NCBI GenBank assembly: GCA_030754595.1
Contig: JASLZZ010000051.1
Span: 1-12,276 of the forward strand
From: Nitrospinota bacterium
Lineage (GTDB): Bacteria; UBA8248
DNA length: 12,276 nt
Direction: 5' to 3'
This document shows positions 1 to 12,276 of the stretch, one piece after another. The notes under the pieces are model-generated. The model saw only the letters and a program-made list of their open reading frames with translations, was not told where the DNA came from and made no database searches. Made by a program: the position numbers and the translations under genes. Positions within the stretch are counted from its first letter, which is position 1. The number at the start of each line of letters is the position of its first letter.

Positions 1-48
1 ACGTGCCGGTCGAAGCACCCGGATTAAGCATGTAGCCGGTTGCGTCCG

Positions 49-66
49 CTCCGCCTGACGGCGGAG
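49..66. repeat. Short perfect inverted repeat (hairpin)
   Basis: CTCCGCC-TGAC-GGCGGAG, 7-bp GC-rich stem with 4-nt loop. No U-tract on either strand, so not called a terminator. Confidence 0.45.
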
Positions 67-156
67 GAAGGTGGAAGGAAATGACCATGCAACTTTTTAA
101 ACCCTTTAGTCTTGAGCGAAGGCCAGAATCGGCAAGCCAGGATTATTATGTGCAAC

Positions 157-192
157 CTCGGATTAGGGATTATTCTCGGATTAGGGATTATT
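157..192 (+). repeat. Perfect 18-bp tandem duplication containing the likely RBS of the pentaheme cytochrome gene
   Basis: CTCGGATTAGGGATTATT at 157-174 and 175-192. AGGGA of the second copy (183-187) lies 8 nt before ATG 196. Confidence 0.9.
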
Positions 193-195
193 TCA

Positions 196-1986
196 ATGTT
201 CTGGCAACCGAAGTTACTATTCGCGATCATTCTATCGTTGGCAATGGCGGTCGCCAGCTCGGCGCAGGCACAAAAGGCCGATGACAAGGCGCCAGAGGAT
301 CAGTTTCGAAACAAGCAGTTCCCCTCGGCCTTCGAATGCAAACCCTGTCATGCGTTGCAGTTCCGCCAATGGTCCGCCTCGCCCCACGCCTATGCCAACC
401 TGAGCCCCGTCTTCGTCGCGGTCGAGAATCAGACCAAGGACAAGACCAACGGCACCTCGGGCACCACCTGTTCGCGGTGTCACGCGCCGTTGGCGGCGGT
501 GCTGGATGTGATGCAGATTTCCAACATGAAGCGGGCGCAATTTGCCCGCGAGGGCGAGGACTTCCTGGGTCCGGTGGTCGAAGGGATTACCTGCGTCGTC
601 TGCCATCGGTTCGACAAACGTTACGCCAAGCGAAGCGCCCGCGCGTTGATCACCGAAGGCGACATCTTCGCGCCGATTTTCGGGCCGACCAACAACGATA
701 TCCAGGCGGAAACCCAGAAGGACACCAGGTTGGCCCTGGTCACCGAGCCCGGCAAGAAGGGGCGGCCGATCCATAAGCGGGTCGAGCACTATCCGTTTCT
801 CCGGGCCTCGATCTTCTGCGGCAATTGCCATTCCTCCAGGCTGCCGACGGGATTCCACAACGAGGAAACCTTCGATGAGTATCGGACCTCGCCGTCCGCC
901 GTCGCCGGCGTAACCTGCCAGGATTGCCATATGGGCAAGGTGCCGGGCGAGGCCAAGGGCTTCGACAAAGGGCCCGCCGCAGTGATCGGCAAGACCGAAA
1001 CCAAGCACCGGCGCCTATCGAACCATTCTATGCCCGGCCCGGATTTCTCGGTGCTGCACCCCGGCATCTTCCCACACAATCAGGATGCGGTGAAGCTGGC
1101 CAACTACGAGCAATGGCTGCAGTTCGATCATGAAAAGGGCTGGGGCACGGACGAGTTCGAGGACAACGTCGCCGACGACCATAAGTTCCCGCAATTCTGG
1201 CAGGATCAGGATCTGCGCTACGAGGCCCGGGATATCCTGGACGAGCAATTCAAGACCTTGAACTATGCCAATGAGCAGCGTCTGGCGGTCATGAAAGCGG
1301 GCTACAAGGTCGAGGACTTCGTTGTCGAAAAGGCCAATCTGAGTGACGGCCTGAAGTTCAAGATCAAGCTCAGGAACGCGGTCCTCGGTCATAACGCGCC
1401 AACCGGCTTCATCCACGAAAGGATGGTATTTTTCCAGATCACGGTAACCGATAGCCGGGGCAATGTCGTCTTCCGCTCGGGAGACCGCGATCCGAACGGA
1501 GATTTGCGCGAGCGGCCGTCGCGATACGTGCGTGCCGGAAAGCTACCGCTGGATACGCAGCTTTTCAATTTGCAGAGCCATTTCATGGTCCATAATTTTT
1601 TCGGCGGCGAGCGCACGCAGCAACGGACCACTCCCTTCTCCAGGACGACCCGACCGTTCGTTCGACCGCCGATAAATCCGACTGCCATCCTCATGCGCCC
1701 CAACGGCACCCGCACCAAAAAGTCTGGAATTGAACCGGGCGGGTTCCGTTGGGCCGCCTACGAGGTCGATGGGGACAAACTGAAAGCCGGGGAAACCTAC
1801 ACCTTGCACATGAAGCTGATTGCTCAAGCGGAGCCGGCTTTCTTCATAGACGTCCAATCCAGTGCCGGCGTGGGGCTCGACTACAACTTCAGTTTGCGGG
1901 AGCTCACCAAGAGGGTGGTCGATGTAAGCATTGATATCTGGGAACAAACGCAAAGCGTGACAATCAAACAAGAAGGAGGCGTATGA
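196..1986 (+). CDS. Exported pentaheme c-type cytochrome (cytochrome c554/c552-related N-terminal domain plus large heme-free C-terminal region)
   Basis: Five CxxCH motifs (CKPCH, CSRCH, CVVCH, CGNCH, CQDCH) and a c554-family-like W-x2-S-x-H after heme 1. Start moved from 112 to in-frame ATG 196 because it has an SD-like AGGGA and gives a Sec signal (MFWQPKLLFAIILSLAMAVASSAQA). Confidence 0.88.
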   Translation: MFWQPKLLFAIILSLAMAVASSAQAQKADDKAPEDQFRNKQFPSAFECKPCHALQFRQWSASPHAYANLSPVFVAVENQTKDKTNGTSGTTCSRCHAPLAAVLDVMQISNMKRAQFAREGEDFLGPVVEGITCVVCHRFDKRYAKRSARALITEGDIFAPIFGPTNNDIQAETQKDTRLALVTEPGKKGRPIHKRVEHYPFLRASIFCGNCHSSRLPTGFHNEETFDEYRTSPSAVAGVTCQDCHMGKVPGEAKGFDKGPAAVIGKTETKHRRLSNHSMPGPDFSVLHPGIFPHNQDAVKLANYEQWLQFDHEKGWGTDEFEDNVADDHKFPQFWQDQDLRYEARDILDEQFKTLNYANEQRLAVMKAGYKVEDFVVEKANLSDGLKFKIKLRNAVLGHNAPTGFIHERMVFFQITVTDSRGNVVFRSGDRDPNGDLRERPSRYVRAGKLPLDTQLFNLQSHFMVHNFFGGERTQQRTTPFSRTTRPFVRPPINPTAILMRPNGTRTKKSGIEPGGFRWAAYEVDGDKLKAGETYTLHMKLIAQAEPAFFIDVQSSAGVGLDYNFSLRELTKRVVDVSIDIWEQTQSVTIKQEGGV

Positions 1987-3431
1987 TGTTTAAAAAGCTG
2001 ATCGGCATCGGGATCATCGCCGCCGTGGGGATGGTCGCCGGGATTACCGACCCCGCCCTGGCCCAGGATAAGGGCTTGCAGGAGACCCAGGATAAGGGCT
2101 TGCGGGATAAAGGCTTGGTGGATCGGGATCCTCTCCGCTACTCCGACGAGGTGAAGGGAATGAAAGAGGTGATAGAACGCCCCAAACCCCTCGTCGAATG
2201 GGGGCAGGGTTATCTCAAGCCGGGGCCCTATTGTTGCGAGTTCGAGCTTCCCACCGGAATGGTTATTTCGCCGAACCTCTTGATCTTCGGCAATTTTCGC
2301 ACCGGGCCGCAGGCCATCGATAACGGCGTCGACCCATCGAGCATCGAGTGGGTCAATACCTTCGACGTTTTCGCCAACCTGAGACTCACCGGAACGGAAA
2401 GAATCTTCTTCGGCATGTCTCCCCTCACGAAAAAGAGCGGCAGCAAGACGAGGTATGTTTTCCAGCCCGACGATACACTCGACACCGAGTTTAACGCCCG
2501 CTTAACCACCGCTTTTTTCGAGGGCGAGCTGAGCGAGATGTTTCCCAAGCTGGATTGGTTCGGCACAAAGCCTCATGATTGGGAAATTGCCGTCGGCCGC
2601 CAACCGGTCTTTATCCACGACGGCCTTCTCATCCAGGACACCATGGATTCCATTGCCATTACCCGCAGCACCGTTCCCTTACCGGGGACGCAATTCGCAC
2701 GCATTGGCGGCATCTTCGGTTGGGACGGCGTCAACAGGAGCAACAACAAAGAGGATACTGAAGCCTACCTATTAGGGCTGTTTTCCGCCATGGACGTGGG
2801 CCACCATACGTTGGATTTCGATATGGTCTATGTGGACAGCGATCAGGACCAGGGCGATCAGTTCAACATAGCCCTCGGGGCCACACAACGCATAATCCTG
2901 TTTAATACCCACTTCGACACCACATTCCGAATCGCCGGCTCCCTTGAGACGGACAACGAAACCAAAATCGCCGACGACGGCGCGTTGTTGTTTTCGAGTA
3001 TCGCGTTTGCGCCCCCAACCACCGATCCCTGGGATAACATCGCCTATGTCAATCTGTTCTTGGCGATCGATAGCTATAAAGTGGCATCCCGCAAATCCGG
3101 CGGACCGTTGGGACTGACCGGGCTTCTGTTCGCGGGCAACGGATTGGCCTCCTTTACGCCGATCAGCAATCAGGCCACCGAATCCTACGGCGGCGCAATC
3201 GGCTACCAGATGTTTTTCTCGCCGACGCAGCGCACCAACCTGATAATGGAAATTGGCGGCCGTAAGGATGACTCGCCCACCGGCTTCAACGCTTACGGCA
3301 TCGGGGCCAAGATATCGCAAGCGATCGGTCAGCACACCTTCGTCTCCCTGGACGTGTTCGGAATCAAGCAGGAAGGAAAAAAGCGGGATACACGCCACGG
3401 CTTGCGCAGCGAGTTGAATATCATCTTCTAG
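1983..3431 (+). CDS. Putative outer-membrane beta-barrel (porin-like) protein
   Basis: SD AGGAGG, ATGA overlap with the upstream stop, Sec signal ending ALA. Many alternating amphipathic strands rich in G/F/D, no internal TM helix, no CxxCH, and a C-terminal BamA-type strand ending in Phe (LRSELNIIF). Confidence 0.72.
   Translation: MMFKKLIGIGIIAAVGMVAGITDPALAQDKGLQETQDKGLRDKGLVDRDPLRYSDEVKGMKEVIERPKPLVEWGQGYLKPGPYCCEFELPTGMVISPNLLIFGNFRTGPQAIDNGVDPSSIEWVNTFDVFANLRLTGTERIFFGMSPLTKKSGSKTRYVFQPDDTLDTEFNARLTTAFFEGELSEMFPKLDWFGTKPHDWEIAVGRQPVFIHDGLLIQDTMDSIAITRSTVPLPGTQFARIGGIFGWDGVNRSNNKEDTEAYLLGLFSAMDVGHHTLDFDMVYVDSDQDQGDQFNIALGATQRIILFNTHFDTTFRIAGSLETDNETKIADDGALLFSSIAFAPPTTDPWDNIAYVNLFLAIDSYKVASRKSGGPLGLTGLLFAGNGLASFTPISNQATESYGGAIGYQMFFSPTQRTNLIMEIGGRKDDSPTGFNAYGIGAKISQAIGQHTFVSLDVFGIKQEGKKRDTRHGLRSELNIIF
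2062..2117 (+). repeat. In-frame short repeats at the mature N-terminus of the barrel protein (DKGL x3)
   Basis: CCCAGGATAAGGGCTTGC at 2062-2079 and 2086-2103 (24-bp period), then degenerate GGGATAAAGGCTTG at 2104-2117. Encodes QDKGLQETQDKGLRDKGL. Confidence 0.85.
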
Positions 3432-3542
3432 GACCCGCGTTAGGGGGGCCGTTTTTCCCCTGATCCCTTGCGCCTTGGCGTCCAATAGGGTTAAGCAAGC
3501 CGTCAAGGTAATGACCACAAATACTTAGTCGAGGAGGGAGTC

Positions 3543-4481
3543 GTGTCGGTTTCATCCATCGGACGCCAGGCTTTGCTATTGGCGATCATGATCGCGGCCT
3601 TCGCATGGACGTCATGGGCGATCGCCGAACCCTATTATCAGGGCCCGAAATCCTGTCAGGATTGCCACAAGGAGGAATACAAGGCCTGGGAGGAATCGAA
3701 GCACTTTACGTCCTACCGCACGGCGCACAAGGAGAAGGACGCGAAGAAGATCGCCAAAGCCGTGGGCGGCAAGAAGAACATGAAGCGGAACAAGAATTGC
3801 AAGGTCTGCCACTATTCGACCGAGCAGAAAAAGGCCGAGGACAAGCCCAAGGTGAAGTACGGCCCGTCCTGCGAACACTGTCACGGCGCCTCTTCCGAAT
3901 GGGAACCTATCCACGCCGACTATGGCGGCAAGGACGTCAAGCGGGAGGAGGAGACGCAGGACCACAAGGCCAAGCGGATCGCCGATTCCACTGCCACCGG
4001 GTTGGTCTGGGCCTCGATGACCTATGATATCGCGGTCAATTGCATGAAGTGCCATGGCTTGGCTCGCTCGGAAATCAGCGGCGAGGCCTTCGCCAAGATG
4101 CTGGAGGCCGGACATCCGATCAACCAATCCTTCGAGATCGTCATGTTCTCCCAGGGCAAGATGCGTCATTGGCTCAAGGAACGTTCGCCGCCGCGATTGG
4201 CCAATCTGTTTGTCGCCGGCCAGGCCGCGAAGCTGGTTTCCGCCACCGAGGCGGCGGCGAAGACCGAGGACGCCAAATACAAGGAGGCGCAAGTGAAGCG
4301 CGTCGCCGATGCCAAGGCCGTCCTGCGGGCTGTGCCCCAGGCGGCGGCGTTGATCAAATCGCCCAGCGACGCCAACGCTCGCAAGATAATGCAGGCGATC
4401 GGCCAGCAGGACCTCTCAGGCCTGGTCGGCGGACTGATCCCCTGCGCCGGCCCAGACAAGAAGAACCTGAGGCAGTGCTAG
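3543..4481 (+). CDS. Periplasmic tetraheme cytochrome c554-family protein with Ala/Lys-rich helical C-terminal extension
   Basis: Strong SD (GAGGAGGGAG 3531-3540), GTG start, signal peptide. Four CxxCH (CQDCH, CKVCH, CEHCH, CMKCH) with the c554-type pattern G-x3-CxxCH-x6-W-x4-H ... CxxCH ... CE-x-CHG ... CxxCH. Confidence 0.88.
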   Translation: MSVSSIGRQALLLAIMIAAFAWTSWAIAEPYYQGPKSCQDCHKEEYKAWEESKHFTSYRTAHKEKDAKKIAKAVGGKKNMKRNKNCKVCHYSTEQKKAEDKPKVKYGPSCEHCHGASSEWEPIHADYGGKDVKREEETQDHKAKRIADSTATGLVWASMTYDIAVNCMKCHGLARSEISGEAFAKMLEAGHPINQSFEIVMFSQGKMRHWLKERSPPRLANLFVAGQAAKLVSATEAAAKTEDAKYKEAQVKRVADAKAVLRAVPQAAALIKSPSDANARKIMQAIGQQDLSGLVGGLIPCAGPDKKNLRQC

Positions 4482-4503
4482 TGGTAGCCGTACGGCAATC
4501 TAT

Positions 4504-4542
4504 GCCAGGTCTAAGCCAAGGCTGCCTGGCTCAGACCTAGGC
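4504..4542. terminator. Imperfect stem-loop downstream of the tetraheme cytochrome gene (possible terminator or mRNA 3' stabiliser)
   Basis: GCC-AGGTCT-A-AGCCA ... TGGCT-C-AGACCT-A-GGC pairs over ~14 bp, starting 23 nt after the stop. No U-tract. Confidence 0.35.
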
Positions 4543-4560
4543 TGCGGACGCAGGCCCGAT

Positions 4561-4590
4561 TGTCATGCCCGGACTTGATCCGGGCATCCA
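4561..4590. repeat. REP-like palindromic element of the (C/T)GTC-tagged type common in Alphaproteobacteria
   Basis: TGTC-ATGCCCGGA-CTTGA-TCCGGGCAT-CCA: 9-bp perfect stem, 5-nt loop, GTC tag and CCA tail, resembling the GTCATG(G/C)CCGG..CCGG(G/C)CATCCA repeats of rhizobia and relatives (recalled, not searched). Confidence 0.75.
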
Positions 4591-4600
4591 CAAGCGCGGA

Positions 4601-4852
4601 CCACCGAATTTTCATTCTCTTGACGATTCTTCTCGCCTCTTTTCTTTGTGTCAGCTTCCGAAAACCCGAATAATGCTTCGTTTTTCTCCAAAACTCCGCG
4701 GCCGCCTTGTGGCATTCGCCGCAGGCCTTGGGGCCAGCCACGAACCTTGGATCCGGCGCCGCATCAGCCACCGACGGCATCCATACAACCCCGAAAACAA
4801 ATATCACCGAAAATACAACTCATCCCAGTCGGTTTCTGATGATTTCAATCAA
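4601..4852 (-). pseudogene. 5' fragment of a second cytochrome c554-family gene (nonsense codon plus 3' truncation)
   Basis: From TTG 4852 it reads MIEIIRNRLG*VVFSVIFVFGVVWMPSVADA-APDPRFVAGPKACGECHKAAAEFWRKTKHYSGFRKLTQRKEARRIVKRMKIR, aligning with GPKSCQDCHKEEYKAWEESKHFTSYRTAHKEKDAKKIAKAVG of 3543-4481. In-frame TGA at 4820-4822. Similarity ends at ~4604, before heme 2. Confidence 0.8.
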
Positions 4853-4904
4853 AGGCGTTGGACAATCTTTCCAGGCTTGAAGAAACTGCTGAAAAAGTCT
4901 CTTT

Positions 4905-5096
4905 TCAGGCCGCCAGCGGCCGAAGCAATGTATATTTGGGCATCCCCCGCCCGCTGGAGCCCCTCTCATACTTGGGCGCGATTCCACGCAAAGAAGCTTC
5001 TTCGACCCGGCGCCTTATGGCCCCTTGATCGAGCCGGATCACTTCCTGAAGCGTCTCGACGCACTCATCGACTTCCGCTTCGGCTTCTGTTGGCAT
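4905..5096 (-). CDS. Small hypothetical protein (63 aa) or gene remnant
   Basis: Co-oriented ORF filling the gap between the decaheme gene and the c554 fragment, with an acidic helical-looking N-half. No clear SD and no recognisable motif. Confidence 0.25.
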   Translation of the reverse strand: MPTEAEAEVDECVETLQEVIRLDQGAIRRRVEEASLRGIAPKYERGSSGRGMPKYTLLRPLAA

Positions 5097-5188
5097 CGGG
5101 ATTCACTTATGTTGGTCATTGATCGGTTAATGGCTGAAATATTCGCAAAACTCCCAAGGACCCAAATATCAGAACAAACAGGCCAGAA

Positions 5189-7297
5189 TTATTGGGATTT
5201 TTCCGGCATCCGCATGGGCGCGTTACTAAGCGCCGGTTTCACTTCGCCGATGTGGTAATTGTGGCAGGTGAGGCATTTATCCGAAGCCCCGTTCCGCGTG
5301 TGGCACGTGGTGCACACGGCCTTCGGTATGGGATGGAAGTTGCTCGCATAAGTAGCGGGATTTAAATCCTTGAAGCCGCCGAGATACTTCGCCCCCGAGT
5401 CGAGCCTGTGGCAGGTGAGACACCCCTTCTCGTCAAGCAGGTTGAAATGCGGGGCGTGCCGGTAGCGGGTAAAACCCCTGACGTTCATAGTGGGGCCCTT
5501 CGCCCGCCAGTTCACTCGCCGGACCTTTTCCCCGGCCCGGTCGACGCTGTGGCACTTGGCGCAAAGGCCGGGCGATTTTTTTCCTGAGAGGGACTTGAAC
5601 ATATCCCCGCGCGCGCCGCCCGAGGCCGCACCGCCCGAGGCCAGATCCAGCCACCCGCGAATGAAGCGGTCCTCATGACCCGTGGGCCGGTAGTAGAGGG
5701 TGAAATCCTGTTCGTACCATCCGCCCGCGACGCTCACTTCCTCGGGAAGGGGAAGCTCTTCGCCTTCTTTCTCTTCGGGCTCTTTTTCCCCTTCTTCCTT
5801 TTCCTTCCCGGGGGCCTCGCCATCCTTGCGCCGCTCGATTTCGGCGGAGAGCCCTGGGAACCAGGCGGCCATCGCCCCGCGCATCACCCCGACGGGTAGC
5901 TGCGCGCTCAGGCGGGAGAGCTCGGCGGCGCCGAGCGGGCGGGCCAGCGCTTTCTCGAGCCGGGCCTTGAGCGCTTTTTGACCGCCGGCAGCGATCTCGT
6001 GGACGAGCCCCTTGATTGCCCAGGCGAGGCGGCCAGCGGCCTTTCGTACATCGTCTTTCGCCTCGGCGAGGTCGAGAAGGTCGACGTCCTCGAGCGCCTC
6101 CTCGGCTTTTTTGAACTCCGAATCCGCCGATAGCAGAAGCCCGAGGAACGGAGTCAGCTCTTCCCCCTCGGCGTCCTGGGGCCAATGGCCTACATCGATC
6201 TTGGCTTTCTGGAGGCCCTCGGCATCGAGCCCCGGCAGGGTGATGAAGGGAATCCCCTTGGCGCCCGCGCTGCTCTCGCCGAGTATCTGCCCTTCGTGGC
6301 ATGCGGCGCAGGCCGACTCGAACCGCCGGGTCTTCATGTACGTTCCGGCCGGATCGGGAAGATGACAACTCTTGCAACTTGTGGGCGCGCGATTCTTCGC
6401 CTCACCCGTGAAATGTTTGTTCAGGTGAGAGGCGTGGTCGAATATCAGCCGCGTTCGCCGGCTATAGGGAAAACGCTTGAATTCAGGGTGATCCTCGCCA
6501 AGGCTCATGAAGCGCGCGGTGTGGCATGACTGGCAGCGCCGGGAATTCATTTCGGCCAAATCCGCACCTTTGCCACGGTGTTCCTGATGGCAGGTGGCGC
6601 ATGCGACGGTGCCCTCAGGCCCATGCCCACCTCTCAATCCAAGCGTGTCGGCCAGAAGCATGTCGATCGAATCCGGTTCGGCTTTTTGCTTTTGGGCGAT
6701 TCGCTCGCTGATCTGAACGAGCGATTGCGGGGATAAGCTGTGCGGCGAGCCGCTGTTATCGCCCAGGACATGGCACGACACGCACAGGCGGCTGTCCTTG
6801 GCGCCCGAATGCGGGGTAAACGCGGCGGCTAGCCACCCTGCGGGACCGCCTTCGAAAGTCGAATGACAATTTCCGCAGGAGCTGGCCGCCGTCTGATGCT
6901 GCGAGGTCAGGGCGCCGGGCGAGATGAACTCAGGGCCCGCGGGCCCGGCGATGAAGAGCAACACGAGCCCCAGCACAAAGAGCGCCGACCACCGGGAGAG
7001 AGCGCCGCGCCGCGCCCGGATGCTCATTACCGGCTGGCAGGGCGGAATCGGATGGCAGCATGTGCCATCGGGCAGCGGGCCCTGGGCACATCGGCCGCCA
7101 AACTCTTTCGACCGCGCACACGACCAGCGGTCCCTCTTATTGATGGGTGTGCATTCATGCCGGGCGATGCACCGTCCCCCGCCGTCCGGGCCGACATGGC
7201 AGGCCCGTCCTTCGGCGGCCCATCCGCAGACCCATTTCCCGCCGGGCCGGTCGTATTGCGACTGATCGAATTTGAAATTCTGGAACCACTTAATCAT
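5189..7297 (-). CDS. Membrane-anchored decaheme c-type cytochrome (c3/c7-like modules) with N-terminal Cys-rich domain
   Basis: Ten CxxCH (CGNCH, CVSCH, CATCH, CQSCH, CKSCH, CAACH, CAKCH, CLTCH, CTTCH, CLTCH), c3/c7-type distal-ligand motifs FDHASH and YRHAPH, and one TM helix (WSALFVLGLVLLFIA). Start moved to ATG 7297, which overlaps the upstream TGA (ATGA), giving 702 aa. Confidence 0.9.
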   Translation of the reverse strand: MIKWFQNFKFDQSQYDRPGGKWVCGWAAEGRACHVGPDGGGRCIARHECTPINKRDRWSCARSKEFGGRCAQGPLPDGTCCHPIPPCQPVMSIRARRGALSRWSALFVLGLVLLFIAGPAGPEFISPGALTSQHQTAASSCGNCHSTFEGGPAGWLAAAFTPHSGAKDSRLCVSCHVLGDNSGSPHSLSPQSLVQISERIAQKQKAEPDSIDMLLADTLGLRGGHGPEGTVACATCHQEHRGKGADLAEMNSRRCQSCHTARFMSLGEDHPEFKRFPYSRRTRLIFDHASHLNKHFTGEAKNRAPTSCKSCHLPDPAGTYMKTRRFESACAACHEGQILGESSAGAKGIPFITLPGLDAEGLQKAKIDVGHWPQDAEGEELTPFLGLLLSADSEFKKAEEALEDVDLLDLAEAKDDVRKAAGRLAWAIKGLVHEIAAGGQKALKARLEKALARPLGAAELSRLSAQLPVGVMRGAMAAWFPGLSAEIERRKDGEAPGKEKEEGEKEPEEKEGEELPLPEEVSVAGGWYEQDFTLYYRPTGHEDRFIRGWLDLASGGAASGGARGDMFKSLSGKKSPGLCAKCHSVDRAGEKVRRVNWRAKGPTMNVRGFTRYRHAPHFNLLDEKGCLTCHRLDSGAKYLGGFKDLNPATYASNFHPIPKAVCTTCHTRNGASDKCLTCHNYHIGEVKPALSNAPMRMPEKSQ
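5613..5642 (-). repeat. 15-bp in-frame tandem duplication (ASGGA x2) in the decaheme gene
   Basis: GCGCCGCCCGAGGCC followed by GCACCGCCCGAGGCC on the + strand, one mismatch. Confidence 0.7.
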
Positions 7298-8163
7298 GAG
7301 GCACCGATCGAAAACGCATAAACGACGGCCACATGCACGACCATCAGAATTAACAGGCACCAGGTCAGGGGGATGTGAAAAAAGAGCCAGCGCTTCAACA
7401 TCCCCTGAAGGGCGTATTGATAGTCCAGTTGATTTTTGATCCGGATGAGCTCGGTCAGCTCGGCGAGGACACTCAGCTCCTTCTCGCTCAGATACCGGCG
7501 AAGAACGAGCACGTCATTCAACAGCGCGTTGAGAGGGCGCCTCGACTCGATGTTATGCAGCCAAAAGTTCCTCGGCCCGGCGAAATAGGCGTGGAGTTTG
7601 TCGGCGTAAAAATCAGCGATGCTCGCGGACTTCGACTCTTCACCGGATTGAACCACCAGCGCTTCGACCTCCTCGCGGACCCGGAGGTAGAAAGCCGGCA
7701 GTCGCTCGTAAATCAACTCTTCCCCGAATTTTCGGCGAATTTCCCCGCCTTCCACCGCGCCCACCCGATCGTGCCGGGTGATTCGCGACGGATAGCCTTT
7801 CGAGATCCACAGACCCAGGGCGCCGCTCAGCGCCACCGCCAGATAGAGCATTGCCAACAGCGATTCGATAATCCCGTTCGGAATACGGAATTCGACATGC
7901 ACCAAGAACAGAAAAAACGTGAACCACCCGACGTATATATGAAGCTGCAGCCAGGCTGCGGATGAGCCCAGGGGGATGAACGACAGCTTCTTGCGGACAT
8001 TATACCCCGCCAGGAACACAATCGCGGCCAGAAGCGCCCACCCGCTCAAGTACTGGGAGCGGGAAAGGGTGACGGCGTAGGCCCGAAAAACAAAAAGCGC
8101 GACCGAGGAGACGATCACGAGCGCGGAGAGACTGAATAGGCGCCGGGCCGCGAATGTGATCAT
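7294..8163 (-). CDS. 5-TM inner-membrane protein, putative di-heme cytochrome b (ferric-reductase/NOX-like transmembrane domain)
   Basis: Start moved to ATG 8163 (ATGA overlap with upstream stop), giving 289 aa. Five hydrophobic segments, with H-x13-H in TM3 (LHIYVGWFTFFLFLVH) and TM5 (FHIPLTWCLLILMVVH). Confidence 0.75.
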   Translation of the reverse strand: MITFAARRLFSLSALVIVSSVALFVFRAYAVTLSRSQYLSGWALLAAIVFLAGYNVRKKLSFIPLGSSAAWLQLHIYVGWFTFFLFLVHVEFRIPNGIIESLLAMLYLAVALSGALGLWISKGYPSRITRHDRVGAVEGGEIRRKFGEELIYERLPAFYLRVREEVEALVVQSGEESKSASIADFYADKLHAYFAGPRNFWLHNIESRRPLNALLNDVLVLRRYLSEKELSVLAELTELIRIKNQLDYQYALQGMLKRWLFFHIPLTWCLLILMVVHVAVVYAFSIGAS

Positions 8164-9878
8164 CTGTTGATCCACTCCACGAGCATTTCCACATCGCGCA
8201 TGTCCACCCGCTTTAGCGCGTCGTGCGGGCAGGCCCGCTCGCAGGCGGGACCGCCGAGCTGATCCACGCACAAATCGCACTTCGTCGCCTTCTCGACCGG
8301 AACGTTCGTGCTCTGGGCCAGAATCAGCTCCCCACGCCCGTCCCGGATGGAAACCATGCGGATATTGTCGTACGGGCAGCTGTTAGCGCAGGTGACGCAG
8401 CCGATGCACGTCACGTCGTTAATCACCACCTGCCCCTGGTGCGATTCGCGGTGAATGGCGCCGGTCGGGCATCCGATCATGCAGACCGGATCGACGCAGT
8501 GCATGCAGGCGTTCGCAACGATGTAGTTTTGAAACCGCTTGCCGTGCCGTATAAAACGAGGATTGTTGTCGTGGGCGCTCGAGCAGGCGCGAACGCAATC
8601 GTCGCAACGCGTGCACCTGTCGATGTCGATAATCATGGCCGCCGTGCCGTTGATGTAGCGGTTGTCCGCCTGAAATTCCATGAAACCCGTGGCGATCTCC
8701 CCGCCCGAGCGTTCCCCCTTCCAGGCGGATTGCGCAAACCCGCGGGGAACGATTCTCGGCGGATACATCTCTTCGGAATAATGAGGCAGGACATATTTTT
8801 CGATAATCGACGTCGGCACCCGGAGGACGTCAATATAGCCCAGGGCGCGGAGGCTGCTCTGAAGGCTGACTTTCTCCTCGAAACGGTGGTTATGGGCGAT
8901 CTCGCCAAACCCGAACACCCCCCCCCGGCCCAGATAGCCGATCGTCCGCTGGCCGAAATCCACTCTTTCGGTGACATGAGCGAACCCGGCGCGGATCATG
9001 ATCAGCCCGTCAGCGTAATTGCCCTCCCCGGCGATGAGGGGCTCCTTTTCATAACGGTCGGCGGCCGACTGGCTGGCGATTTTCTTGTAGCTCGCATGCC
9101 AGTCGAATTCCCCGTAAGTTTCGAACAGTGTGTGCTCGGCGACGACGTCAATTTCTTCTTCGCTCAGGTTGCTGAACGCCGAGGTCGCCATGAGGTGAAC
9201 CTTCAGGCTCCGCTCGCGGTAAATCCGATCCACATAATTTCTGATTTCCTCCGCCCGCCGGCGAATGTCGCGAAGCCCCTGCCACCTGATTTCAAGCAGT
9301 ACGCAATCGTCCCGGGCGATAACGGTGGCGGTCCGGGGGGTTCGGCCCAGCGCGGCGATTTCGCCGAACATGGTCCCCTCTTCGAGGGAAACCGATTGAT
9401 GTATGTCGAGAAAAGCGGGCACGTCCTGGAGGAACACCCGCGCCTCCGTTCCTTCTCCCCGGATGTTGGTGCCGGAAGATTTTCCGTATTTCGATATGTC
9501 GCGGTACTCGGCCAAGGGGGAGTTGGACCATAGCTGTCTCAAGGATTGAAAAAATCCTTTTTCTCCGGATGCTTGGCGTCCGAGGGATTCGGTCCCGAGT
9601 TCGTCGAGAAAAACGGTGACCGAGCCTTCCATGATCAGAAAGGCGGAGTTTCCGTAGTCCCCCTCGCGCACCACGATCTCGTCGTCCGTGTAGCGCATGA
9701 CGCGCGTGTCGTTCAGGATGATATCGTGAAGGGAGGTCTTCGGCGGAAATTTGGAGGGGTCAATTTTATCGAAAGGCGGTTTGGTGAGCACCCAGTCCAC
9801 GTCCGCAGCAGTCATGTCGAGATCGAACGGCTCGTCCCAGCGCTGTGGCCTCTCGATGGCCGTGGGAGTCTGTGCCAT
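8160..9878 (-). CDS. Tandem cyclic-nucleotide-binding domains fused to a DmsB/NrfC-like 4x[4Fe-4S] ferredoxin
   Basis: CNB1: IVVREGDYGNSAFLIMEGSV...FGEIAALGRTPRTATV. Degenerate CNB2: EGNYADGLIMIRAG...LGRGGVFG. Sixteen Cys in four groups: CTRCDDCVRAC, CMHCVDPVCMIGCP, CIGCVTCANSCP, CDLC-x8-CERACP. SD-like AGGGG upstream. Confidence 0.9.
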   Translation of the reverse strand: MAQTPTAIERPQRWDEPFDLDMTAADVDWVLTKPPFDKIDPSKFPPKTSLHDIILNDTRVMRYTDDEIVVREGDYGNSAFLIMEGSVTVFLDELGTESLGRQASGEKGFFQSLRQLWSNSPLAEYRDISKYGKSSGTNIRGEGTEARVFLQDVPAFLDIHQSVSLEEGTMFGEIAALGRTPRTATVIARDDCVLLEIRWQGLRDIRRRAEEIRNYVDRIYRERSLKVHLMATSAFSNLSEEEIDVVAEHTLFETYGEFDWHASYKKIASQSAADRYEKEPLIAGEGNYADGLIMIRAGFAHVTERVDFGQRTIGYLGRGGVFGFGEIAHNHRFEEKVSLQSSLRALGYIDVLRVPTSIIEKYVLPHYSEEMYPPRIVPRGFAQSAWKGERSGGEIATGFMEFQADNRYINGTAAMIIDIDRCTRCDDCVRACSSAHDNNPRFIRHGKRFQNYIVANACMHCVDPVCMIGCPTGAIHRESHQGQVVINDVTCIGCVTCANSCPYDNIRMVSIRDGRGELILAQSTNVPVEKATKCDLCVDQLGGPACERACPHDALKRVDMRDVEMLVEWINR

Positions 9879-10011
9879 TGGCCCCTAATTTCTACAACGA
9901 GAAATGGTCAGCCTATTTCGCCTAGGCTTGAAAGTAACCGGTCCATGAGTGATCTGGAATCGCCATGTACATGTCAATTTCTTCGGTTTGGAAACACCGG
10001 ATAAGCATCCT

Positions 10012-11304
10012 TCAAGCATCCAGCGTCAGGTCTCCGTTGGGAGCAGAAATGCAAGTCAGGCAGGTGCCTGCCTCGGGAGCGGTCCCGGGTTCTTGAATGT
10101 AAGTCACCTGCCCCGATTTAATGGCCGTCACGCATGTTCCGCAATTTCCCGCCCGGCAACCCGAATCGATATTCACTCCGTTAGCTAGCGCGAAATCCAT
10201 AATCGAGCCGCTCGAAGTATCCCAAGGCAGGGTTTTGTTGCTCTTGGCGAAAACGATCTTGTGTTTGGGTCCCGCATCCGCCCCGTCCTTCTCGGTTTCG
10301 GCAGGCTCTTTCTTCACGCTGGCGGGGCCAAAGGCCTCGAAGTGGACATGGTTACCGGGCACACCCCATTTCTTGAGACCTTCGGTGAGAGACTTCATCA
10401 TGGGCGGCGGACCGCAGATATAAAAATCGTAGTTATTCGAGGGAAGGATTCGCTTGAACAAATCCACGCTGACCTGCTCGCCGTGCTGGTAATCCCTTCC
10501 TTCAACATCGTTGTCGGTGGGATCGCTGTAGCACACGTTCAGACGGATATTTTCATGTTCCAGGGTGAGATTATGGAGATGTTCCTTGAATATATGGTCC
10601 CTCTGGTTGCGCACCCCGAGGAAGAACCAAACCTCGCGATGCGATCTCGATTCGGCAATCGTGTTCAGCATGCTCAGAACCGGCGAGATGCCAATTCCGC
10701 CGCCGATGAGAACAATCGGGCTCTGCTGGGACGTATCCAGAAAAAAGTTTCCTCTCGGCGCCTTGACGTCGAGAATGTCGCCTTCGATAAGGGAGTCATG
10801 GAAAAAACTCGAGGCCACGCCCGGCGGGAGATCCGGTTTATCCCTCGGGGGGGGGACCTTCTTGATGGAAACGCGGTAGTAATCCGCATGTCCCGACCTG
10901 TCGGATAGAGAATAGCACCGGACAACCTCTTTTTCGGCATCCCGACCCCCTCCTTGGAAATGCAGGTTGAAGGTCAAAAACTGTCCGGGCTTGAAGGAGG
11001 GCAGGGGTTTGCCGTCATGGGGAGCGAGATAGAATGAGCAAACGCCGCCACCCTCGGGCACCTTGCGCTGAACGGTGAATTTCCGGTAGCCGGGCCAAGA
11101 AAACTCCGAGGACTGGACTTCCTTGAAAACCCCTTTGGCGATATCGACCTGGGTCTCCAGAAGTTCGAGGGCAAGATTTTGCTGGACGCTTTCACGCGAG
11201 TAACGGCGAAAGGATGTAACCAACAGGACCAAGACCTGCACCATGACCGCCGCGACGATCACCGCCCCGGCGGCCTGGAAGGCTGCGGGTGTCATGCGCT
11301 CCAT
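10012..11304 (-). CDS. Membrane-anchored FNR-type FAD/NAD(P)H oxidoreductase with C-terminal [2Fe-2S] ferredoxin (PDR/PaaE/Hcr-like domain order)
   Basis: FAD motifs PGQF, RCYSL, GVASSF. NAD motifs GGGIGISP, YICGPPPMM, HFEAFG. Plant-type Fe-S motif GCRAGNCGTC...CLTC. N-terminal hydrophobic helix followed by RRYSR. SD AAGGAGG. Confidence 0.92.
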   Translation of the reverse strand: MERMTPAAFQAAGAVIVAAVMVQVLVLLVTSFRRYSRESVQQNLALELLETQVDIAKGVFKEVQSSEFSWPGYRKFTVQRKVPEGGGVCSFYLAPHDGKPLPSFKPGQFLTFNLHFQGGGRDAEKEVVRCYSLSDRSGHADYYRVSIKKVPPPRDKPDLPPGVASSFFHDSLIEGDILDVKAPRGNFFLDTSQQSPIVLIGGGIGISPVLSMLNTIAESRSHREVWFFLGVRNQRDHIFKEHLHNLTLEHENIRLNVCYSDPTDNDVEGRDYQHGEQVSVDLFKRILPSNNYDFYICGPPPMMKSLTEGLKKWGVPGNHVHFEAFGPASVKKEPAETEKDGADAGPKHKIVFAKSNKTLPWDTSSGSIMDFALANGVNIDSGCRAGNCGTCVTAIKSGQVTYIQEPGTAPEAGTCLTCISAPNGDLTLDA

Positions 11305-11702
11305 GCCTCCTTTTCAGATTAGCCTTTTGGTGGAAAACCCACCCTCTCGGACAATCGGCTCATGAAACTCAGGCGATACGTGCCAAATTCCGCCGCTGAT
11401 CGATCAGAAATGAAATTATGCCGCAACGCTCTTCATTTAGCAAAATACGACCTATTTATCCTTATCAGCGGCCTTGTTGCACAATTCCAACTGTGGTCCG
11501 ATCCGTGCCATCTTAAATCACGCTTTACCGGATCCGGACGGAATCAGGCATCCCAATGCCCATCATTCAATTCAGCGTGGCACATTTCACCATTACTTCC
11601 ACATGTTGACTATCAGGCCCTCGAGCGGCGAGGCGCCCGCCAAACAGTGCCTTGAATCGTGAGAAGGCATTCTCCGCGAGACTCTGCCGGGTACACCCGC
11701 TT
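11305..11702 (-). promoter_or_regulatory. Relatively AT-rich upstream region, probable promoter of the minus-strand operon
   Basis: About 400 bp without a credible ORF in front of the first operon gene. Contains palindromes CTGATCGATCAG (11396-11407) and CCGGATCCGG (11528-11537). No convincing -35/-10 assigned. Confidence 0.4.
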
Positions 11703-12276
11703 GGCGTTGGTGCATGAATGGCGTCAGCCCTACGCTAGCATCGGCTCGCCCTCCCGATCAATCATGGAGGCTGAGGGGGCGACGCCATGGCCGCAGGGAA
11801 GTCGAGCCGAGTCAATCGCAAATACAAGACGAAGTACAGAATCCGGAACTGGGGAGAGTACGAGCGTGGCCTCAGGAGCCGTGGCGATGTCACAATCTGG
11901 CTGAGCCAGGAGGCGACCACCGCGTGGACACTACCGAATAACGGTCTCCGCGAGGCCAGCTACGGTACTCGAACCTCGCGATCTTGACCGCGTTGACGCT
12001 GCGGGTCCTCTTCCGCCTGCCGCTTCGCCAGACCGAGGGTTTCCTTGAATCGCTGCTCCGCTTGATGGGCCTCGACCTCAAGGCCCCGGACCACACCACA
12101 CTCTCGCGCCGGAACCAGACCGTTGAGGTGCCGCTCCTGACCCGAGTCCACGACGGCCCGATCTCCCTGGTCGTCGATTCCACGGGGCTCAAGATCCTGG
12201 GGTCCGGCGAGTGGAACGTGCACAAGTACAAGGCGTCGAGGAAACGCCGGGACTGGCGGAAGCTGCACATCGGAGT
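11703..12276 (+). mobile_element. IS5-family (IS903 group) insertion sequence, left part
   Basis: Candidate left IR GGCGTTGGTGCATGAA (11703-11718) resembles the IS903 end GGCTTTGTTGAATAAA as I recall it, and is followed by the transposase. The right end lies outside the window. Confidence 0.8.
11787..12276 (+). pseudogene. IS903-group DDE transposase, frameshifted at ~11952 and cut by the window edge
   Basis: First frame: YRIRNWGEYERGLRSRGDVTIWL. A shifted frame from 11954 continues GQLRYSNLAILTALTLRVLFRLPLRQTEGFLESLLRLMGLDLKAPDHTTLSRR...VVDSTGLKILGSGEWNVHKYKASRKRRDWRKLHIG, typical IS903-type motifs. Confidence 0.9.

Follow-up and report, generated by a model that had tools for sequence, protein, structure and literature searches.

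PtdE of a Nitrospinota ptd/PCC4 locus combines two cyclic-nucleotide-binding domains with a four-cluster ferredoxin module: a candidate nucleotide-regulated electron wire

Described systems and the locus

Two published descriptions concern gene clusters like the one studied here. In a bioRxiv preprint (10.1101/2023.11.21.568154) the cluster ptdABCDEFG comprises a pentahaem PtdA, a porin PtdB, an FAD/NAD(P) oxidoreductase PtdC, a tetrahaem PtdD, a ferric-reductase-like membrane protein PtdF and a decahaem PtdG. He et al. (2017, Front Microbiol 8:1584, PMC5566968) described PCC4, a porin with cytochromes of 4, 5 and 10 haems and a five-helix inner-membrane protein carrying two W-x3-H-x13-H motifs and an SGxxG motif; in its subgroup II a pfam13247 iron-sulfur (Fe-S) gene lies just upstream of the membrane protein, and the cluster is reported from Zetaproteobacteria. 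The subject of the present analysis is the ptdE gene on a stretch of 12,276 nucleotides, the window, from a Nitrospinota bacterium (assembly GCA_030754595.1, contig JASLZZ010000051.1, positions 1 to 12,276 of the forward strand). This gene (8160..9878, reverse strand) is an open reading frame (ORF) with an ATG start for 572 residues, encoding a protein with two cyclic-nucleotide-binding (CNB) domains followed by motifs for four [4Fe-4S] clusters. The best explanation of the whole, to which we assign a probability of about one half, is that PtdE is a nucleotide-regulated wire in an outward electron path.

All seven ptd genes were found in the window. Their products were matched to the clusters of both papers by description, not by sequence: the haem counts of 5, 4 and 10 agree with ptdABCDEFG, and every component listed for PCC4 subgroup II is present. 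The two nearest relatives, the loci L001 and L043 (the latter from the same-genus genome G048), carry the genes colinearly in the order ptdA-B-C-D-E-F-G. Since the cluster description matches and the relatives are colinear, PtdE is, judged from sequence, the Fe-S subunit of the PCC4/ptdABCDEFG cluster. The window differs from ptdABCDEFG in that its genes are arranged in two convergent units, with ptdD removed from between ptdC and ptdE. In the preprint the clusters of PtdE are counted as two 4Fe-4S, whereas four complete motifs are present here, and gating is not discussed there.

The architecture of PtdE is not new, as the family has been named twice in print, and the addition made by the window is modest: a Nitrospinota member with a rearranged operon. 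The arguments that go beyond the accessible text of both papers are the fusions in independent sequences, the count of four clusters instead of two and the invariant cassette. The words 'cyclic' and 'cNMP' occur nowhere in the main text of PMC5566968, a count that does not extend to its Supplementary Figure 4. No further paper on the combination of CNB domains with a four-cluster ferredoxin was found in a search of mostly open literature, with thin coverage of subscription journals and supplements. The PCC clusters of Manganitrophaceae (PMC9040806) were considered as a match and rejected as a different system.

Domain architecture of PtdE

The first CNB domain (CNB1; 9258..9698, reverse strand, residues ~61-207) is split by a conserved insertion into the halves 9573-9698 (residues 61-102) and 9258-9389 (residues 164-207). 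Its phosphate-binding cassette (9321..9368, reverse strand, residues 171-186, FGEIAALGRTPRTATV) is canonical. The second domain (CNB2; 8808..9056, reverse strand, residues ~275-357) has an atypical cassette and is followed by a variable, poorly conserved linker (residues ~367-398) leading to the ferredoxin module with its 16 conserved cysteines (8163..8684, reverse strand, residues ~399-572). In Pfam, cNMP_binding matched PtdE in three stretches (E 3.6e-21, 75.4 bits against a cut-off of 27.5) and Fer4_11 scored 39.9 bits (cut-off 26.2), accompanied by further Fer4 models. No helix-turn-helix (HTH) domain was among the 13 Pfam families found in PtdE at E<=0.01, and the protein has no hydrophobic segment, no N-terminal twin-arginine motif and no signal peptide. 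No molybdenum/tungsten (Mo/W) or hydrogenase catalytic family was found in the 11 window ORFs that were scanned with profiles, these being the ones of the 45 listed that do not lie in the shadow of a longer gene.

A preliminary description of this DNA had read from the letters two CNB domains and 16 cysteines without HTH or signal peptide, and had noted the lack of a Mo/W or hydrogenase partner. The former is confirmed by Pfam and by reading of the sequence, the latter holds among the 11 scanned ORFs, and cNMP_binding and Fer4, the architecture for which it had proposed a search, both lie above their cut-offs in Pfam. A regulator of the CRP/FNR type was rejected for PtdE, which has no C-terminal HTH and ends in an Fe-S module instead. 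A periplasmic subunit of the NrfC/HybA type was likewise rejected, as PtdE has no twin-arginine signal and in some lineages is continued by PtdF, whose start is cytoplasmic.

The 16 cysteines lie in the C-terminal 150 residues in the groups CxxCxxCxxxC, CxxCx4CxxxCP, CxxCxxCxxxCP and CxxCx8CxxxCP. Conservation was counted over the 120 relatives listed by a database search and over 24 loci from species-representative genomes (43-81% identity); each cysteine is kept in 117-120 of the 120 relatives and in all 23 loci that cover the region. The best match of the module is HycB3 of the hydrogen-dependent CO2 reductase (7qv7_A, E 1.2e-16 over residues 415-567). Among other solved relatives are ArrB, HycB and NarH, modules of the HydN and AegA types match as well, and every solved relative matched is an electron wire. 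No equivalog cut-off of NCBIfam was reached, the best scores being those of AegA (61.8 bits against 1003), DmsB (60 against 214) and HydN (58 against 260); the module is therefore regarded as a separate family and not as DmsB or NrfC.

With proteins of the DmsB/NrfC/HybA type PtdE shares the four cysteine groups for four cubane clusters, but it has no co-encoded catalytic Mo/W or hydrogenase subunit; it is not exceptional for a four-cluster ferredoxin to have no Mo partner. NarH (1q16_B, E 2.2e-9) and FdnH (1kqf_B, E 2.9e-6) match the module too. In NarH-NarI and FdnH-FdnI the four-cluster protein exchanges electrons with a transmembrane dihaem b subunit, and NarH is cytoplasmic, as PtdE is predicted to be. 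Unlike NarH and FdnH, PtdE has sensor domains and no molybdoenzyme partner, and its donor appears to be a flavin/2Fe-2S reductase.

In the cassette of CNB1, G172 is conserved in 119/120 relatives, E173 in 120/120, R182 in 119/120 and T/S185 in 120/120. Glu and Arg are kept together in 22 of the 24 loci, in several phyla, the exceptions being L019, with His for Arg, and L024, which is frameshifted at the cassette. Loss of the two residues from most homologues, named in the preliminary description as something that would refute its ligand-gated reading, was therefore not observed. The insertion of about 60 residues (~103-163) is of low confidence in the predicted structure, yet L99, G100, Q115, W117, E124 and R126, in it or at its edge, are invariant, which suggests contact with another protein.

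The predicted structure of PtdE has a mean predicted local distance difference test (pLDDT) score of 73.9 and a predicted template-modelling (pTM) score of 0.71; most CNB blocks, the insertion excepted, reach pLDDT values of 75-95. Its best Foldseek matches are the tandem CNB-A/B domains of PKA-R and PKG (6rsx, E 1.7e-15; 4z07, E 6.6e-15). The likeness thus lies in the tandem CNB fold, at E values of 1e-15 to 1e-12, and in the canonical cassette of CNB1. In contrast to PKA-R and PKG, the PtdE tandem shares its chain with an Fe-S wire and not with a kinase partner, CNB1 holds a large insertion and the cassette of CNB2 is lengthened. Binding of a cyclic nucleotide by PtdE is somewhat favoured. 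The genome to which the window belongs has two matches to class III cyclases and at least 11 other CNB proteins, and at least one class III cyclase is present in each of the nine ptdE-bearing genomes of the phylum.

The PtdE family and its variants

A word-indexed search returned 5024 proteins at E<=0.001 among 8000 scored candidates. The 120 matches listed are all of about 570 residues or slightly longer, share 53-100% identity with PtdE and carry the CNB and Fer4 families; one name among them is 'Fe-S-cluster-containing dehydrogenase component/CRP-like cAMP-binding protein'. PtdE itself was a 100% match to a database cluster with 26 members. An exhaustive search of 1.84 billion representatives, each a cluster at 50% identity, gave 6280 relatives at E<=1e-3, 1598 at 1e-10 and 581 at 1e-30, the last number being a lower bound for the size of the family. 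At least six phyla hold PtdE members. The 24 loci belong to Nitrospinota, Planctomycetota, Opitutaceae, Gammaproteobacteria, Gemmatimonadales and Myxococcota, and the nearest of them lies in a Nitrospinota metagenome-assembled genome (MAG) with 81% identity to PtdE. In the phylum of the window ptdE was found in 9 of 51 genomes and 5 of 15 genera, and the genome of the window has a single copy.

Two database proteins from independent clusters, P0131 (843 residues) and P0158 (856 residues), are fusions of PtdE with PtdF. Residues 578-842 of P0131 are 35% identical to PtdF (E 3e-50), the corresponding part of P0158 is 34% identical (E 2e-48), and in both the PtdF part begins about eight residues after the PtdE part. 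Each fusion is represented by two full-length sequences from different contigs. A one-base sequencing error that joins the ATGA overlap of the two genes is the less likely cause, given four sequences in two lineages. According to PMC5566968, a single gene call combining the Fe-S and inner-membrane proteins occurs in Oceanospirillum beijerinckii as well. In the fusions the Fe-S module ends where the first helix of PtdF begins on the cytoplasmic side.

Longer variants extend the N-terminal part. One or two FHA domains, which bind phosphothreonine, were found in 9 of 22 long variants scanned (P0128, P0130, P0133, P0147, P0213, P0245, P0227, P0229 and P0179), placed N-terminal to the CNB part or inside it after CNB1. 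In P0163, P0169, P0173, P0177 and P0195 (~875-900 residues) about 350 N-terminal residues have no family assignment. A flavin domain fused to PtdE was not found in any of the 22 at E<=1e-3 or 1e-4. The homologues at the loci L008, L009 and L010, from gammaproteobacterial and planctomycetal MAGs, are of ~710-730 residues, and the N-terminal part of the query aligns to them two times (residues 5-131, then 47-572), pointing to a third CNB-like unit in these sequences.

Gene order and the ptdE-ptdF-ptdG core

Gene order was assessed by tblastn of the window proteins against the 24 loci. PtdF follows directly after PtdE in 23 of them and PtdG is next in 22; the misses concern L012 and L009, where the contigs end. 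In the window the stop codon of ptdE overlaps the start of ptdF in an ATGA, as does the stop of ptdF with the start of ptdG. From the conserved order and these overlaps it follows that ptdE-ptdF-ptdG is the core unit. PtdC is adjacent in 17 of the 24 loci, encoded on the opposite strand in the two from Opitutaceae. Where it is missing, at seven loci, the stretch upstream is short in four (L007, L009, L019 and L023). Tetrahaem cytochromes occur at 14/24 loci, and a pentahaem cytochrome with a putative porin at 7/24. The position assigned to PtdE in the preliminary description, between the flavin reductase PtdC and the membrane b-type cytochrome PtdF, is well supported by synteny, gene overlaps, fusions and the histidines of PtdF. 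The ligand-gated switch that it proposed for this position is partly supported.

In the locus of Roseimaritima sediminicola (L017), PAS-GGDEF and DUF2293 genes lie upstream of ptdE-F-G. The PAS-GGDEF gene, for a diguanylate cyclase (L017:3255-5072), is situated just upstream of ptdE-F-G at a locus with no adjacent ptdC, a hint that other nucleotide messengers could play a part in that lineage.

The ptdF gene (7294..8163, reverse strand) encodes a five-helix membrane protein of 289 residues, a putative dihaem cytochrome b. Its motifs are W71-x3-H75-x13-H89, SG113ALG (SGxxG) and W259-x3-H263-x13-H277, and the four histidines H75, H89, H263 and H277, one pair on each of two transmembrane helices, are invariant in 20/20 sequences. 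The structural model is confident (pLDDT 88). In Pfam, Ferric_reduct scored 12.6 bits on the window PtdF, below its cut-off of 28; among the 20 family members 15 matched DUF4405 (best E 1e-3) and seven Ferric_reduct (best E 5.5e-4), all weakly. With VIA-align the best Z of 9.9 was obtained for helical sensor domains, and a designed two-haem bundle (7ah0_A, Z 8.1) and the cytochrome b of hydrogenase-1 (4gd3_A, Z 7.6) followed, all within the range common for helical bundles. No homology of PtdF to NarI or FdnI was found by any test run. As these profile and fold links are weak, the dihaem reading is founded on the motif, as it was in He et al.

The ptdG gene (5189..7297, reverse strand) encodes a decahaem cytochrome c with an N-terminal cysteine-rich region and one transmembrane helix. 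The cysteine-rich region comprises the first ~95 residues (7012-7297, reverse strand), precedes the helix and is predicted to be cytoplasmic. It holds about 11 cysteines and two G-x2-C-x2-GP-x3-G-x-C repeats. In a tblastn search with the first 150 residues of PtdG 20 loci matched; the region is covered in 17, and in L014, L018 and L022 the match starts only at the helix. The region may bind a metal or cluster and dock PtdE. No mention of it was found in the accessible text of PMC5566968 or of bioRxiv 10.1101/2023.11.21.568154.

The ptdC gene (10012..11304, reverse strand) encodes an FNR-like reductase that binds FAD and NAD(P), is anchored in the membrane and ends in a 2Fe-2S ferredoxin domain. 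An N-terminal helix anchor is followed by basic residues, which are predicted to place the remainder of PtdC in the cytoplasm. In the NADPH oxidase/ferric reductase (NOX/FRE) proteins electrons from NAD(P)H reach FAD and then leave the cytoplasm through two b haems in the membrane, each bound by His residues that form pairs on helices 3 and 5; NOX5 and DUOX are regulated by a cytosolic sensor domain. The comparison with NOX/FRE is also made in PMC5566968. The same succession of NAD(P)H, FAD and two b haems is proposed here for the ptd system. It differs from NOX/FRE in that the flavin and haem domains are separate proteins, bridged by a 2Fe-2S and four 4Fe-4S clusters, and that the acceptor would be a multihaem cytochrome and not O2 or an Fe(III) chelate.

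Proposed electron path and its alternatives

In the proposed mechanism NAD(P)H would donate electrons to the FAD of the membrane-anchored PtdC, from which they would move on to its 2Fe-2S cluster. They would then pass to the four [4Fe-4S] clusters that the C-terminal module of PtdE is predicted to bind, and from these to the two haems of PtdF and across the membrane, PtdE serving as a wire on the cytoplasmic side, attached to the inner face of the dihaem cytochrome b. From PtdF they would move to the decahaem PtdG, then to PtdD with its four haems and on to the pentahaem PtdA and the porin PtdB. Over its N-terminal two thirds PtdE is a CNB tandem like that of PKA-R and PKG, and at least the first site would take a cyclic nucleotide, presumably made by one of the class III cyclases of the genome. 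A rearrangement of the CNB domains driven by this ligand would change how the Fe-S wire is docked or exposed, and with it the electron flux. The sequences show the domains, the family, the synteny, the gene overlaps, the fusions and the conserved ligands of clusters, haems and cassette; the loading with cofactors, the order of the carriers, the direction, the ligand and the gating are inferred. The role of PtdE as a relay is probable; its gating by a nucleotide is put forward tentatively.

The outward direction is favoured on standard potentials, because it is downhill in potential and runs with the membrane potential, whereas inward flow to NAD(P)+ would run against both. The path would be quinone-independent and non-conserving. 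Bypassing the quinone pool and conserving no energy, it could be expected to need tight control, for which the CNB tandem is the obvious candidate.

Several points weigh against this explanation. In the preprint the function of the cluster is called 'completely unknown', and in PMC5566968 the function of PCC4 is given as unknown or hypothetical, with electrons proposed to flow inward, from extracellular Fe(II) into the quinone pool. The model of PtdE is of low confidence in its Fe-S part (block means 40-81), and comparison of the PtdF model with the PDB by Foldseek gave no match at E<=0.001 (best 0.49). Three loci of the Pirellulaceae type (L015, L017 and L021) have the full 6 kb of upstream DNA and still no adjacent PtdC, which is therefore not an obligatory neighbour. 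The Glu and Arg of CNB2, E326 (110/120 relatives) and R344 (120/120), lie 17 residues apart and not 8. The PKA-R homologues 6hyq and 6flo, which bind nucleosides, are among the Foldseek matches of PtdE, and domains of the CNB fold are able to bind other ligands, or none. As a class III cyclase is found in 45 of the 51 genomes of the phylum, against 9 of 51 for ptdE, the presence of a cyclase does not discriminate and is only permissive as a source of the ligand.

The non-canonical cassette of CNB2, the nucleoside-binding homologues among the fold matches and the CNB1 insertion of about 60 residues, whose invariant residues resemble a protein-protein interface, would all suit a constitutive relay in which the CNB tandem serves as a scaffold or docking surface, or binds a ligand other than a cyclic nucleotide, so that no second messenger gates the flow. 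We regard this as rather unlikely. Without a phosphate-ribose ligand it is hard to account for the pattern FGE...R-x-A-[TS] of CNB1, which 119-120 of 120 relatives retain and which persists across phyla, and the repeated addition of FHA domains in 9 of 22 long variants marks the N-terminal part as regulatory. Still less probable is a sensor that is not itself the conduit, in which the clusters of PtdE read the redox state and, together with a nucleotide, regulate PtdF/G or another target and not the main flux. Such a protein would account for redox cofactors in one chain with signalling domains, which are CNB and, in variants, also FHA, but the four-cluster chain of the DmsB/HycB type is a wire in every solved relative matched, no output domain was found in PtdE with Pfam, and the protein is fused end-to-start with PtdF in some lineages. 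We consider this reading very unlikely.

The direction of flow is the other matter to be weighed. In the PCC4 model of He et al., put forward in PMC5566968, electrons from Fe(II) or Mn(II) would enter through PtdA/B, PtdD and PtdG and pass through PtdF to quinone, PtdE and PtdC forming a side branch to or from NAD(P). The cluster does occur in lithoautotrophs, namely Zetaproteobacteria according to that paper and Nitrospinota here, and PtdF weakly resembles quinone-reactive b cytochromes (DUF4405 in 15/20 members, Ferric_reduct in 7/20). Against these stand the standard potentials, by which reduction of NAD(P)+ (-320 mV) by donors at the level of Fe(II) or cytochrome c is strongly uphill, and the membrane potential, which opposes the inward movement of electrons. 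The cluster is also present in heterotrophic Planctomycetota and Opitutaceae, and a quinone site would be hypothetical. Inward flow thus appears unlikely, and the outward path through a nucleotide-regulated PtdE is preferred.

Other genes of the window and their rearrangement

The two convergent units of the window consist of ptdC-E-F-G on the reverse strand and the remaining three genes on the forward strand. A ptdA-like pentahaem cytochrome c gene (112..1986, forward strand, 5 CxxCH, start codon uncertain) belongs to a divergent copy set. A ptdB-like gene (1983..3431, forward strand) encodes a putative outer-membrane porin with a signal peptide and the C-terminus ...NIIF, the label porin being taken from the two papers. 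A ptdD-like tetrahaem cytochrome c gene (3543..4481, forward strand, 4 CxxCH) is a divergent copy. Identity to L001 and L043 is 44% for ptdA, 37-38% for ptdB and 31-34% for ptdD, against 62-89% for ptdC, ptdE, ptdF and ptdG, and the three divergent genes are the sole copies in a 97%-complete assembly.

The original ptdD was excised precisely from between ptdC and ptdE, leaving a spacer at 9879-10011 with a homology junction at 9921/9922. A 5' relic of the ancestral gene, 278 bp long, remains downstream of ptdG (4604..4881, reverse strand), with 87% DNA identity to positions 4915-5192 of L001 and an in-frame stop after codon 11. On the sequence evidence a divergent outer-membrane and periplasmic set seems to have replaced the original ptdA, ptdB and ptdD; a chimeric contig is a possible cause as well. 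No family match was found for the ORFs at 4565-5122 (forward strand), 11362-11904 (forward strand) and 11890-12276 (reverse strand), and the first of these, orf185, runs antisense to the relic of ptdD and is unlikely to be a gene.

A scan of the window with Rfam gave nothing at the gathering score. Between 4300 and 12276 four promoter-like sites were found where 2.3+-1.3 were expected, and 12 terminator-like sites where 8.4+-3.2 were expected, both not above chance; one of the promoter-like sites lies upstream of ptdC (11443-11415). Near-identical metatranscriptomic contigs cover much of ptdA, ptdB and ptdD in 4/4 libraries of four studies, ptdE is represented by one contig of 247 bases (8566-8812, run X1), and short fragments fall on ptdC and on the spacer between ptdC and ptdE (9911-10140, run X2). 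Such libraries may contain DNA, contigs cannot rank genes and uncovered stretches carry no information, and these matches were not counted as evidence of transcription.

Implications for the family

To our knowledge no respiratory or extracellular electron-transfer chain is under control of the kind considered here. If the sensor domains work as their sequence suggests, cAMP or cGMP could switch a trans-envelope electron path post-translationally. A redox valve gated by a second messenger, in which a nucleotide acting on the Fe-S wire opens or closes a quinone-independent path from NAD(P)H to multihaem cytochromes and a porin, is a possibility that we hold with some doubt. If it were true, hundreds of lineages, ranging from Planctomycetota to nitrite oxidisers of the sea, would have such a valve, and PtdE would be the first ligand-gated Fe-S electron-transfer protein. 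The holders of the cluster, among them marine Nitrospinota, Planctomycetota, Verrucomicrobiota and Zetaproteobacteria, are environmentally important, and because of its wide occurrence in such groups the function of PtdE bears on the disposal or acquisition of electrons in low-oxygen water and sediment.

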